Source of the DNA: Escherichia coli | GTDB taxonomy: Bacteria > Pseudomonadota > Gammaproteobacteria > Enterobacterales > Enterobacteriaceae | Reading direction: 5' to 3' (one strand) | NCBI RefSeq assembly: GCF_048403405.1 | Contig: NZ_CP183129.1 | Length of the DNA: 64,000 nucleotides | Shown here: one piece after another, positions 56,690 through 60,754 of the stretch | Numbering within the stretch: the first letter of the stretch is position 1 | Layout: every line of letters begins with the position of its first letter | Position numbers and translations under genes: made by a program | The notes under the pieces: generated by a model | Database searches by the model: none | Told to the model about the DNA's origin: nothing | Seen by the model: the letters and a program-made list of their open reading frames with translations, nothing else

Positions 56690-58972
56690 ATGTCCGAGCT
56701 TAATGAAAAGTTAGCCACAGCCTGGGAAGGTTTTACCAAAGGTGACTGGCAGAATGAAGTAAACGTCCGTGACTTCATTCAGAAAAACTACACTCCGTAC
56801 GAGGGTGACGAGTCCTTCCTGGCTGGCGCTACTGAAGCGACCACCACCCTGTGGGACAAAGTAATGGAAGGCGTTAAACTGGAAAACCGCACTCACGCGC
56901 CAGTTGACTTTGACACCGCTGTTGCTTCCACCATCACCTCTCACGACGCTGGCTACATCAACAAAGCGTTGGAAAAAGTTGTTGGTCTGCAGACTGAAGC
57001 TCCGCTGAAACGTGCTCTTATCCCGTTCGGTGGTATCAAAATGATCGAAGGTTCCTGCAAAGCGTACAACCGCGAACTGGACCCGATGATCAAAAAAATC
57101 TTCACTGAATACCGTAAAACTCACAACCAGGGCGTGTTCGACGTTTACACTCCGGACATCCTGCGTTGCCGTAAATCCGGTGTTCTGACCGGTCTGCCAG
57201 ATGCTTATGGCCGTGGTCGTATCATCGGTGACTACCGTCGCGTTGCGCTGTACGGTATCGACTACCTGATGAAAGATAAACTTGCACAGTTCACCTCTCT
57301 GCAGGCTGATCTGGAAAACGGCGTAAACCTGGAACAGACTATCCGTCTGCGCGAAGAAATCGCTGAACAGCACCGCGCTCTGGGTCAGATGAAAGAAATG
57401 GCTGCGAAATACGGCTACGACATCTCTGGTCCGGCTACCAACGCTCAGGAAGCTATCCAGTGGACTTACTTCGGCTACCTGGCTGCTGTTAAGTCTCAGA
57501 ACGGTGCTGCAATGTCCTTCGGTCGTACCTCCACCTTCCTGGATGTGTACATCGAACGTGACCTGAAAGCTGGCAAGATCACCGAACAAGAAGCGCAGGA
57601 AATGGTTGACCACCTGGTCATGAAACTGCGTATGGTTCGCTTCCTGCGTACTCCGGAATACGATGAACTGTTCTCTGGCGACCCGATCTGGGCAACCGAA
57701 TCTATCGGTGGTATGGGCCTCGACGGTCGTACCCTGGTTACCAAAAACAGCTTCCGTTTCCTGAACACCCTGTACACCATGGGTCCGTCTCCGGAACCGA
57801 ACATGACCATTCTGTGGTCCGAAAAACTGCCGCTGAACTTCAAGAAATTCGCTGCTAAAGTGTCCATCGACACCTCTTCTCTGCAGTATGAGAACGATGA
57901 CCTGATGCGTCCGGACTTCAACAACGATGACTACGCTATCGCTTGCTGCGTAAGCCCGATGATCGTTGGTAAACAAATGCAGTTCTTCGGTGCGCGTGCA
58001 AACCTGGCGAAAACCATGCTGTACGCAATCAACGGTGGCGTTGACGAAAAACTGAAAATGCAGGTTGGTCCGAAGTCTGAGCCGATCAAAGGCGATCTCC
58101 TGAACTACGATGAAGTGATGGAGCGCATGGATCACTTCATGGACTGGCTGGCTAAACAGTACATCACTGCACTGAACATCATCCACTACATGCACGACAA
58201 GTACAGCTACGAAGCCTCTCTGATGGCGCTGCACGACCGTGACGTTATCCGCACCATGGCGTGTGGTATCGCTGGTCTGTCCGTTGCTGCTGACTCCCTG
58301 TCTGCAATCAAATATGCGAAAGTTAAACCGATTCGTGACGAAGACGGTCTGGCTATCGACTTCGAAATCGAAGGCGAATACCCGCAGTTTGGTAACAACG
58401 ATCCGCGTGTAGATGACCTGGCTGTTGACCTGGTAGAACGTTTCATGAAGAAAATTCAGAAACTGCACACCTACCGTGACGCTATCCCGACTCAGTCTGT
58501 TCTGACCATCACTTCTAACGTTGTGTATGGTAAGAAAACTGGTAACACCCCAGACGGTCGTCGTGCTGGCGCGCCGTTCGGACCGGGTGCTAACCCGATG
58601 CACGGTCGTGACCAGAAAGGTGCAGTAGCCTCTCTGACTTCCGTTGCTAAACTGCCGTTTGCTTACGCTAAAGATGGTATCTCCTACACCTTCTCTATCG
58701 TTCCGAACGCACTGGGTAAAGACGACGAAGTTCGTAAGACCAACCTGGCTGGTCTGATGGATGGTTACTTCCACCACGAAGCATCCATCGAAGGTGGTCA
58801 GCACCTGAACGTTAACGTGATGAACCGTGAAATGCTGCTCGACGCGATGGAAAACCCGGAAAAATATCCGCAGCTGACCATCCGTGTATCTGGCTACGCA
58901 GTACGTTTCAACTCGCTGACTAAAGAACAGCAGCAGGACGTTATTACTCGTACCTTCACTCAATCTATGTAA
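56690..58972 (+). CDS. pflB: Pyruvate formate-lyase (formate C-acetyltransferase 1)
   Basis: 760 aa; active-site ACCVSPM and C-terminal glycyl-radical motif RVSGYAVRF. Confidence 0.97.
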
Positions 58973-59010
58973 TTAGATTTGACTGAAATCGTACAGTAAA
59001 AAGCGTACAA

Positions 59011-59041
59011 TAAAGGCTCCACGAAAGTGGGGCCTTTTTTA
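59011..59041 (+). terminator. pflB rho-independent terminator
   Basis: AGGCTCCAC-gaaa-GTGGGGCCT hairpin followed by TTTTTT; a second GAGAGCCTTTTTTG element follows at 59046-59059. Confidence 0.7.
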
Positions 59042-59163
59042 GCACGAGAGCCTTTTTTGTCAGCTATCTATACTTTAAGGTGACTGCCAAAACAGACTCG
59101 ACGTAGCCTTCGAGCTGCGCACCAACACGGCCTCAGATGGGCCACATCTGGAGAAACACCGCA

Positions 59164-59190
59164 ATGTCAGTTATTGGTGACATTTTTTGA
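59164..59190 (+). pseudogene. pflA: 5' remnant of pflA (PFL-activating enzyme) truncated at a prophage junction
   Basis: ATG TCA GTT ATT GGT (MSVIG, the pflA N-terminus as I recall it) sits at the expected position after the pflB terminator with its RBS (GGAGAAACACCGCA), then reads GAC ATT TTT TGA (stop) and continues into phage DNA. Confidence 0.65.
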
Positions 59191-59251
59191 TATCTAATTA
59201 CATGAAATAAAAGGATTTATTTCTTGTCACGTCCACACATTGACCACATCG

Positions 59252-59278
59252 ACAAAAAAGCCCCTCGACTGAGGGGCT
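59252..59278 (-). terminator. ogr rho-independent terminator
   Basis: Minus strand reads GCCCCTC-agtc-GAGGGGC then TTTTTTG, about 10 nt after the ogr stop. Confidence 0.7.
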
Positions 59279-59290
59279 TTCTGTTTGTAA

Positions 59291-59509
59291 TTACATCCAC
59301 ATAATTTGCTGTCCTGATGGCAACGGGTGCGGCCTTACGGCGTGGACTTCTCCCGGCTTCACGATGTATCGCTGTACCGACTCATAAGTGATGAACGTGG
59401 CGCTGCAATTCACGTTCTGGCACTGATGATAACGCTCTTTTGTCGTGTCAGTGATATAGCGACTTGTACGCGCATGTGCGGCATGCTGGCATAAAGGACA
59501 ATGAAACAT
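59291..59509 (-). CDS. ogr: P2 Ogr-type zinc-finger late-gene transcription activator
   Basis: 72 aa MFHCPLCQHAAHARTSRYITDTTKERYHQCQNVNCSATF... with a C-X2-C...C-X4-C zinc finger; internal Met of track ORF 59291..59572. Confidence 0.9.
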   Translation of the reverse strand: MFHCPLCQHAAHARTSRYITDTTKERYHQCQNVNCSATFITYESVQRYIVKPGEVHAVRPHPLPSGQQIMWM

Positions 59510-59590
59510 CGCGAGCACCTCTTCCGGTTTTGTTGATGGTGCCATTTTAGTTAATTTATCCTTACAAAACAAACAGATAAAACAAAAACA

Positions 59591-60754
59591 TCACTCATCA
59601 TCTTCTGTTTCGTACTCCACATCAGAAAGCCTGACCTCAAGCTCTAAGGACGTCGTGAAGCCGCTATTATTCAGAAAATGTGTCACCTTAGTGATTGTCC
59701 AGTCCTGCTCGTCTATGACGCGCTTAAAGCCAGACACTTTGACCGGTGTTTCCGTGTAAATATCTGCCCGACCGGTAGCCAGGCTGATGGAGAACTCCGC
59801 AACGCCCCGTTGCAGTTTATCCCACTTCGCCTGAGCGGCGCGCATGGCCTGCGCTTTCGTGGCATATACCGTGGTCAGGGCAAAAACGTTGTCAGCCTCA
59901 CCGGCCATGTATTCACCTTCACGCGCTTCCGGTACTTTAGGCGCTTTCTTCTGCCTGACCGGTTTCGCTTTCGGGTGCTCCAGTGCGCGCAGGTGTTTCT
60001 CTTTCTTTTTGCGTTTCAGTTTTACCTTCTGCTTTTGAGGCTTCGGGTCTTTGGTGTGTAGCCATTTTGCCGTTACACCGGTGTAGGCTCCACGGTCAGC
60101 AATCGCAAAATGATGGCGGTCGCCGTCGCTGCGGGTTATGGTGACCTGCGGGATTTTTTTACCGCTGGCCGTCACTCCCTGCCCCGCTTTGAGAAACAAC
60201 AGTTTTCCCATTTTTACCGACACCTCCCCGCCGTTGCGTTCAGCAAGGCGGGTCAGGAATTTTGCATCAGACTCCTGCGACTGGTCGATGTGCGGGATTT
60301 TAATTCCGGCCAGTGACGGCGCGACACTGGCTTCCAGCCTGTTACGGGAGGCTATCACCTCAACAATCGCACCGAGCGTGGTGTCATGCCAGGAGCCTTC
60401 ACTGCGGGAATTGAGCGTCCCGCGAAAATCTGCACTCCGGGCGCGGATGGTAACCACATCCGGCGCGCCCCGGTGTTCAACCTCATCAACGGTAAATTTC
60501 CCTTTGCATACCAGGGCAAAACCTTTCCAGCCGATATACACCGTCAGGACAGCGCCACGAACCGGCAGCCCGACCTGCCCGTCGGCATCGTTCAGTTCAA
60601 TATCAAGCTGGTCAGCCTCAAAGCCCCGGTTATCCGTCAGGGTCATGCTCATCAGACGGTCGCTGATATTGCCGGTAATATCCCTGCTGTCGAGCATCAG
60701 CATGTAATCCGGCGTCAGCGTACTGCCTGCATCAAATGTCAGCGCATCCAGCAT
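59591..60754 (-). CDS. D: P2 gpD-type tail protein
   Basis: 387 aa; position between U and ogr and length as in P2; lysine-rich central segment. Confidence 0.85.
   Translation of the reverse strand: MLDALTFDAGSTLTPDYMLMLDSRDITGNISDRLMSMTLTDNRGFEADQLDIELNDADGQVGLPVRGAVLTVYIGWKGFALVCKGKFTVDEVEHRGAPDVVTIRARSADFRGTLNSRSEGSWHDTTLGAIVEVIASRNRLEASVAPSLAGIKIPHIDQSQESDAKFLTRLAERNGGEVSVKMGKLLFLKAGQGVTASGKKIPQVTITRSDGDRHHFAIADRGAYTGVTAKWLHTKDPKPQKQKVKLKRKKKEKHLRALEHPKAKPVRQKKAPKVPEAREGEYMAGEADNVFALTTVYATKAQAMRAAQAKWDKLQRGVAEFSISLATGRADIYTETPVKVSGFKRVIDEQDWTITKVTHFLNNSGFTTSLELEVRLSDVEYETEDDE

Follow-up and report, generated by a model that had tools for sequence, protein, structure and literature searches.

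We examined a 64,000-nucleotide stretch of the Escherichia coli chromosome (contig NZ_CP183129.1 of assembly GCF_048403405.1; the whole of it is called the window below), near the right end of which the gene pflB is followed by the first few codons of pflA and then by the ogr end of a P2-like prophage. The features that bear on this junction are as follows, in window coordinates.

56690–58972, + strand: pflB (formate C-acetyltransferase), intact; a 760-aa ORF, annotated pflB in a matching genome
59015–59040, + strand: pflB terminator hairpin GGCTCCAC-GAAA-GTGGGGCC, then a T run; read from the sequence
59041–59163, + strand: native pflB-pflA intergenic DNA, now apart from the pflA body; the same as the K-12 sequence
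59164–59190, + strand: stub ORF MSVIGDIF-stop, with five codons from native pflA, three from the phage and then a stop; read from the sequence
59166–59178, no strand assigned: attR copy of the 13-bp common core GTCAGTTATTGGT, from a four-way comparison of attB, attP, attL and attR
59179–59256, no strand assigned: ogr-side arm of the phage attP, nearly the same as P2 from about 59203 on
59231–59239 and 59242–59249, no strand assigned: putative arm-type Int repeats on the ogr side, GTCCACACA and GACCACAT
59257–59280, no strand assigned: Rho-independent terminator of the ogr/F operon, from a terminator scan; the P2 homologue is annotated as a terminator
59291–59509, - strand: ogr (late-gene activator), an ORF; ogrK in the matching genome, coordinates mapped by alignment
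59591–60754, - strand: gpD tail protein, an ORF and annotation of the matching genome
60754–61233, - strand: gpU tail protein, an ORF and annotation of the matching genome
61248–63695, - strand: gpT tape measure protein, an ORF and annotation of the matching genome
63688–63843, - strand: gpE tail assembly protein, an ORF and annotation; the prophage runs on beyond the window end

The host side of the junction is nearly that of K-12. An alignment with K-12 covers window positions 58544–59184 at 99.5%, and in a base-by-base reading the first base at the junction that departs from K-12 is 59179. K-12 carries the same pflB terminator hairpin, with one substitution nearby; the hairpin at 59015–59040 is absent from the output of our terminator scan, which missed it because the stem was probably extended into the T run. 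The pflA ribosome-binding site (Shine-Dalgarno GGAG, 59150–59153) and the native start codon (59164–59166) are both present, and the native intergenic DNA presumably also holds the pflA promoter, as in K-12. From that start codon the stub frame reads ATG TCA GTT ATT GGT GAC ATT TTT TGA, with its stop at 59188–59190, and a 27-codon ORF that spans attP in the free phage ends in the same last eight codons. Alignments of the window with free phage genomes (P24A7b, S164 and others) begin at 59162. We also note an Rfam PyrD leader match at 5660–5733 on the minus strand (97.9 bits), in which there is nothing unusual and which fits the window being a K-12-like pyrD-to-pflB chromosomal segment.

On the phage side, positions 59203–59700 are 99.6% identical to P2, and the P2 stretch equivalent to the ogr-side arm is annotated with IHF and Int P-arm sites in the P2 record. 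The ogr/F-operon terminator lies about 80 bp past the switch from host to phage DNA. Its hairpin is symmetric and has a T-rich tail on either side, so it may also keep host transcripts from running antisense into the late genes. The colinear ogr-D-U-T-E block and the full P2 gene set annotated in the matching genome identify the element as P2-like (Peduovirus), with a gene order, C-int-attP-ogr-D-U-T, like that of P2. A Cox family protein, a helix-turn-helix (HTH) C protein and int also stand in P2 order, in a face-to-face switch with int downstream of C; the C protein has the GQIAPALA motif, which has been described before (PMC3448106). In the genome GN02461 (L001), which differs negligibly from the window over 24.5 kb, the prophage measures 35,623 bp from core to core. 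Its defence-type cargo, which lies beyond the window end, occupies two positions (L001 12478–16716 and 32137–34768), one with retron Ec48 (a reverse transcriptase and a membrane effector) and a DUF7380 protein and the other with a Lit-family exclusion protein and a DUF2634 protein.

We compared the four att sites in one alignment, taking attB from K-12, attP from phage P24A7b, attR from the window and attL from GN02461. The longest, and indeed only, ungapped identity between attB and attP is the 13-bp GTCAGTTATTGGT, which is found once in the window, where 0.07 matches are expected by chance. In attR the host T is kept at 59165 (within ATG) and phage GA stands on the right side, and in attL the phage A is kept (AAG, so that the native ATG is lost) and host CG stands on the right side; since the left and right bases switch source in this way, the crossover lies inside the 13 bp. 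The attP core sits within a perfect dyad, ACCAA-N8-TTGGT, the halves of which are putative core-type Int sites. On the int side there are two GTCCATAA repeats at a spacing of 11 nt, which overlap the int stop, and their P2 counterpart is an Int arm site that overlaps the P2 int stop, so predicted arm-type repeats flank the attP core on both sides, as for a heterobivalent integrase. The att region of the phage also includes the stretch ACCAAGTCAGTTATTGGTGAC. The layout as a whole (arm repeats over the int stop, core, IHF/arm region, terminator) is like that of P2 attP, but the common core is 13 bp here and the attP core feature in the P2 record is 27 nt, and the P2 record, unlike the phage here, has no ORF annotated between int and ogr across attP.

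The integrase (Int; 331 aa, WP_000023395.1) has the domains Int_N (PF24624, 5e-22) and Phage_integrase (PF00589, 2e-17), and its segments LRHTFATHF and TYAHF align with P2 Int and supply the RHxxR...Y signature of the heterobivalent tyrosine integrases. It is 53% identical to P2 Int, and the P2 core AAAAAATAAGCCCGTGTAAGGGAGATT (27 nt) has no match anywhere in the window with up to three mismatches allowed; the specificity is thus not that of P2 for locI, a site that lies between genes. A matching attP is present in 19 phage records at ≥98.5% identity. Phage P88 and its relatives share the int 3′ end only and have a different att region, and they were set aside as not relevant. On all these points the original prediction stands: it had host sequence continuing through the pflB terminator, the pflA ribosome-binding site and MSVIG, a switch to phage DNA at about 59,179 with a stop three codons on, the ogr terminator 80 bp beyond, no canonical P2 core, and an integrase specificity different from that of P2.

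The int-proximal junction had been expected 30–35 kb past the window, and the GN02461 prophage puts it about 30.8 kb past the window end. There attL reads ...gaagcgatATGagtaatttaactaattgtaatacaacagaaaataccgctacggcgggggctaccaaGTCAGTTATTGGTcgcattcac..., in the order int stop, 31 nt and a 798-nt pflA, and pflA from codon 6 onward is found in frame with a start codon, in a complete ORF of 265 codons. The encoded protein (265 aa, WP_000067979.1) starts MSNLTNCNTTENTATAGATK-SVIGRIHSFESCG, where MSNLTNCNTTENTATAGATK is a 20-codon leader that is followed by SVIGRIHS..., so that a phage Met and 19 further residues replace Met1. MS 69-1 has the same Int (WP_000023395.1) and the same PflA (WP_000067979.1) as GN02461. 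Residues 21–265 match the crystallised PFL activase chain (3C8F/3CB8) at 100% identity, so pflA is not truncated, and with the NCBIfam PflA equivalog, for which the cut-off is 375, the fused protein reaches 523 bits. In every genome inspected the ORF at attL is intact, with a full pflA in the same orientation at the other end of the prophage. Thus, pflA is not lost, since the integrase-side end of the prophage gives it a new start codon and a 20-codon leader, and the earlier claim that pflB is left without its activase gene has to be withdrawn. The other possibility then raised, that the int-proximal junction supplies a replacement pflA 5′ end, was right in that a complete in-frame pflA lies there, but that end is a phage ATG and 19 codons and not a copy of the native start.

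The free-phage ORF of 27 codons from which the leader comes starts 31 nt after the int stop and ends in MSNLTNCNTTENTATAGATKSVIGDIF and a stop. From the sequence, SNLTNCNTTENTATAGATK is a tryptic peptide of the leader-bearing PflA N-terminus. Between the leader ATG and the Fe-S cysteine motif, no in-frame ATG, GTG or TTG was found in the leader-bearing sequences. When the fused PflA was modelled with AlphaFold2 from an alignment of 13 sequences, the mean pLDDT was 55.6, with residues 1–98 below 50, and because these values are too low we draw no conclusion on the structure of the leader. Downstream of pflA, where ycaK and ycaN follow in K-12, the window's lineage is missing ycaK and most of ycaN (L001 5386–5496; L024 2866–2976), and only a 111-nt LysR-family pseudogene is left before ycaM.

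The attachment site itself is already known. The sequence records of the P2-like coliphage PhiD145 are AM158280, AM159077 and AJ298559, and the site-specific recombination of PhiD145 and PhiD160 is reportedly treated by Karlsson et al. in 2006 (J Bacteriol 188:3923) and Mandali et al. in 2010 (Virology 408:64). Both of these phages integrate at MG1655 coordinate 950293, and prophage PhiECA29 of Pectobacterium has the same site identity as PhiD145 (Nilsson et al. 2011, PMC3448106). In the current K-12 record, NC_000913.3, pflA occupies 950340–951080. We take the offset between the MG1655 genome versions to be 777 bp, by which 950293 in the old numbering becomes 951070 and pflA in the old numbering runs from 949563 to 950303. 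With this offset, 950293 is pflA nucleotide 11, within core nucleotides 3–15, and we count the site as known because it coincides with the published coordinate; the att site here is accordingly the known PhiD145-type site, assigned by coordinate and not by comparison of Int or attP sequences. The prophage here has a P2-type C/Cox switch and P2-type arm repeats, as PhiD145 and PhiD160 do, and unlike them it has its own cargo, including retron Ec48 and the Lit-like protein. Among open-access papers, our literature search found none linking pflA with a P2-like prophage. Prophage PhiECO5 of UTI89 (911–948 kb), which we had suspected of lying at pflA, is actually between serS and dmsA.

Elements of other families restore the genes that they enter. 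The dusA islands restore dusA, and phage 21 and e14 do likewise in icd; the dusA-specific integrases target the dusA 5′ end (Farrugia et al. 2015, PMC4482086). As in those cases, the att region of the element here restores an intact ORF after integration. It differs from them in that the new 5′ end is a foreign 20-codon leader and not a near-copy of the displaced end, so that the native start is lost, and in that the restored pflA sits directly behind int.

The arrangement is common. Among 5426 complete E. coli genomes the attR (pflB-ogr) junction is present in 402, about 7.4% (counted at ≥80% coverage of an 801-nt query), and the attL junction in 404. A 24.5-kb part of the window is 100% identical in four genomes (strains 4621, MS 69-1, TUM1226 and OX030728), the exact fused PflA is found on at least 1000 contigs, and the same leader is also present in Klebsiella pneumoniae. 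These numbers, together with the catalogued PhiD145/PhiD160 site, do not agree with the earlier description of the integration target as unusual; the junction is real but largely ordinary.

How the fused gene might be expressed can be considered from its surroundings. Along the coding strand from C through int to pflA, our scan found no terminator-like site before the native pflA terminator. In P2, C and int follow Pc (P2 record), and by analogy fused pflA could be the last gene of a lysogenic Pc-C-int transcript. Immediately before the leader, in the DNA of the arm repeats, there is a promoter-like site, TTAACC-16-CATAAT, but promoter-like sites in the region are no commoner than in shuffled sequence, so we claim no promoter there; this site is not conserved in the Salmonella remnants described below. 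The Shine-Dalgarno match of the leader ATG is weak, with a duplex energy of -2.1 kcal/mol versus -6.4 for native pflA.

The leader is also found well outside this prophage. Nine leader-bearing sequences (E. coli, E. albertii, a C. portucalensis prophage, C. freundii, four Salmonella and one unassigned contig) differ in amino acids, but every leader is exactly 20 codons long with no stop and no indel. The C. portucalensis sequence (L015 4870–6061) belongs to an intact prophage with an Int that is 79% identical, and its 20-codon leader is MSNLTHCKDKENTAITAPVK-AVIG. A homologous 20-codon leader also heads pflA in genomes that have no prophage there, namely the type strains of S. enterica subsp. 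arizonae and diarizonae, C. freundii M-21 and three more isolates of S. enterica (two with one contig sequence in common), where the leaders are MSNLNDCIKKENTAAAAEKK-PIIG, MSNLTDCITNESVAVTADKK-PVIG, MSNLTDCIKKENIAVTADKN-PLIG, MSNLTNCITKENVAVTADEK-PVIG and MSNLMPNTETESAVVADDKK-PTIG. Each of these is preceded by gaagcgatATG, which includes its start codon, with about 190 nt of a decayed int 3′ end further upstream. The int remnants in these prophage-less genomes are pseudogenes with stops and frameshifts; the Salmonella remnant reads ..HTFAVYFILNRGKIAPLQYILEQSHIL-stop-SKIYARS.. against ..RHTFATHFIMNGGNIITLQRILGHSNIQQTMTYAHF.. in Int, and in C. freundii M-21 (L011 6700–7100; leader MSNLMPNTETESAVVADDKK) the fragment matches Int residues 269–311 at 56% identity (tblastn E = 2e-11).

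Additional sampling gave little more. The S. enterica species representative has no match to the exact 21-nt pattern, and a scan of IMG/VR with the initiation-region pattern returned five E. coli-type copies and two chance matches, with no new variants. A protein search with the 60-residue N-terminus returned short fragments only, among them the extra leader variants P0031 and P0067. A Logan contig from SRR2175557 (L014 2043–2841) has the 20-codon leader MNKITDCITTDPSDLVEDKK-PVLG, a pflA that is split by an apparent frameshift, and a glycosyltransferase family 25 gene upstream of pflA.

Within the Salmonella sequences conservation is highest in the initiation region (-35 to +12), at 96.8%, and lowest in the middle of the leader (codons 5–20), at 81.9%. 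We also note that, in an alignment from about -200 to +60 of the leader ATG, the non-coding int remnant is 92.7% conserved, which is more than leader codons 5–20; either the remnant DNA may by now have become the promoter region of pflA, or the leader may be drifting freely. Since there is no alternative in-frame start before the Fe-S cysteine motif, the leader ATG is most likely the functional pflA start in the prophage-less lineages, and this would make the fusion compatible with function.

In Salmonella the spacer between pflB and pflA (L005 2394–4060; L007 2360–4040; L009; L010) holds sopD2 on the opposite strand, the PhiD145-type int fossil and then the leader-headed pflA; there is no native pflA ATG and no prophage, sopD2 ends right after the pflB terminator, and a deletion has removed the attR side together with the native start of pflA. 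The sopD2 protein scores 660 bits with its NCBIfam equivalog. To judge from its sequence, the Salmonella pflB-pflA islet looks like the fossil of a P2-like prophage, and that sopD2 arrived as phage cargo is a guess. P2-like Salmonella phages with type III effectors (the SopE-phi and Fels-2 group) give a precedent for effector delivery (PMC3448106); unlike the sopD2 locus, that group is integrated in ssrA, and the sopD2 locus has no recognisable phage genes but the ~190 nt of int 3′ end. Our literature search found sopD2 linked neither to pflA nor to an integrase remnant, and the papers that name STM0971 say only "not in COGs". The fossil leaders of Salmonella and Citrobacter may be the new part of this result.

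The account that we consider probable as a whole is that window positions 59166–59178 form the attR core of a P2-like (Peduovirus) prophage, complete and 35.6 kb long, at the PhiD145-type pflA site, and that the 265-aa fused PflA at attL would have its transcript from phage DNA, start its translation at the leader ATG and be active. The tyrosine integrase targets the first pflA codons in place of P2 locI, with recombination within the 13-bp identity, so that the first 20 codons of the free-phage ORF (MSNLTNCNTTENTATAGATK) are joined in frame to pflA codon 2 at attL, and the presumed native promoter, the ribosome-binding site and the first five codons are left at attR, where the eight-codon stub runs into the ogr terminator. 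Transcription of fused pflA would come from read-through of the lysogenic Pc-C-int transcript or from a weak promoter overlapping the int-proximal arm sites, and with translation from the leader ATG PflA would stay active and pyruvate formate-lyase activation would be retained.

Several other explanations were weighed against this one. That the junction is an artefact of assembly or concatenation, which the original prediction had kept in view for this window, has nothing in its favor except the abruptness of the homology switch; the identical junction in 402 complete genomes, its reciprocal in 404 and the matching attP of the 19 phage records reduce its chance to practically nil, and the frequency of the junction and the existence of identical genomes are the reasons why we exclude it. 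Loss of pflA function on integration, with lysogens unable to activate pyruvate formate-lyase, would fit the separation of the native ATG, ribosome-binding site and promoter region from the gene body and also the weak Shine-Dalgarno match at the replacement start. Yet the ORF at attL is complete and in frame in every genome inspected, the complete E. coli genomes with this arrangement, about 7.4% of the total, come from many sources, and the leader frame has been kept in prophage-less Salmonella and Citrobacter despite the decay of the adjacent int, so we think such a loss quite unlikely. Less likely still is active lysogeny, in which pflA would be off while the prophage is integrated and restored on its excision. 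From the anatomy of the att sites, excision would regenerate native attB and hence native pflA, but with an intact fused ORF at attL no on/off switch is needed, and the fixed fossil leaders cannot excise.

The least improbable of the alternatives, though still unlikely, is that the leader ORF is incidental: Int-arm and Cox binding alone would have shaped the stretch from int to the core, and fused pflA would be expressed from some other non-canonical start or at an irrelevant level. The equivalent P2 DNA does hold P′ arm and Cox sites, the two GTCCATAA arm-type repeats overlap the int stop here, and the middle of the leader is poorly conserved in amino acids. Against this, the remnants have no use for recombination sites, yet in them the 20-codon frame is intact and, in Salmonella, the initiation region is the best-conserved part (96.8%); no alternative in-frame ATG, GTG or TTG precedes the Fe-S cysteine motif; and a G-rich, Shine-Dalgarno-like run near the junction in the E. 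coli phage has no start codon after it and is not conserved.

Together with the phage-headed and active pflA that we favor, the fossils suggest a broader reading, which we judge to have about an even chance of being correct. Here attP would carry a dedicated restart cassette, consisting of the conserved initiation region and the 20-codon leader, that re-heads pflA behind C-int under phage transcription; this graft would have become fixed in Salmonella, beside sopD2, and in C. freundii, with the decayed int 3′ end as its sole other trace, and the sopD2 islet would be the fossil of a P2-like prophage.

For annotation, these results mean that a P2-like prophage abutting pflB should not be read as loss of pflA, and that in about 7% of complete E. 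coli genomes PflA is a 265-aa protein whose N-terminus comes from a phage. As regards physiology, the prophage would supply the transcription and translation signals for the activase of a key anaerobic enzyme, and pflA expression may follow the phage lysogenic promoter and not the native one. The D145 att site has been used for chromosomal integration plasmids of the pIT5 series (PMC12765450). Integration of such a plasmid would change the pflA 5′ end, which is relevant to fermentation work. If the fossils are confirmed, a phage-supplied start codon and leader became the permanent 5′ end of a core metabolic gene, and the sopD2 locus of Salmonella would be tied to a vanished P2-like phage.
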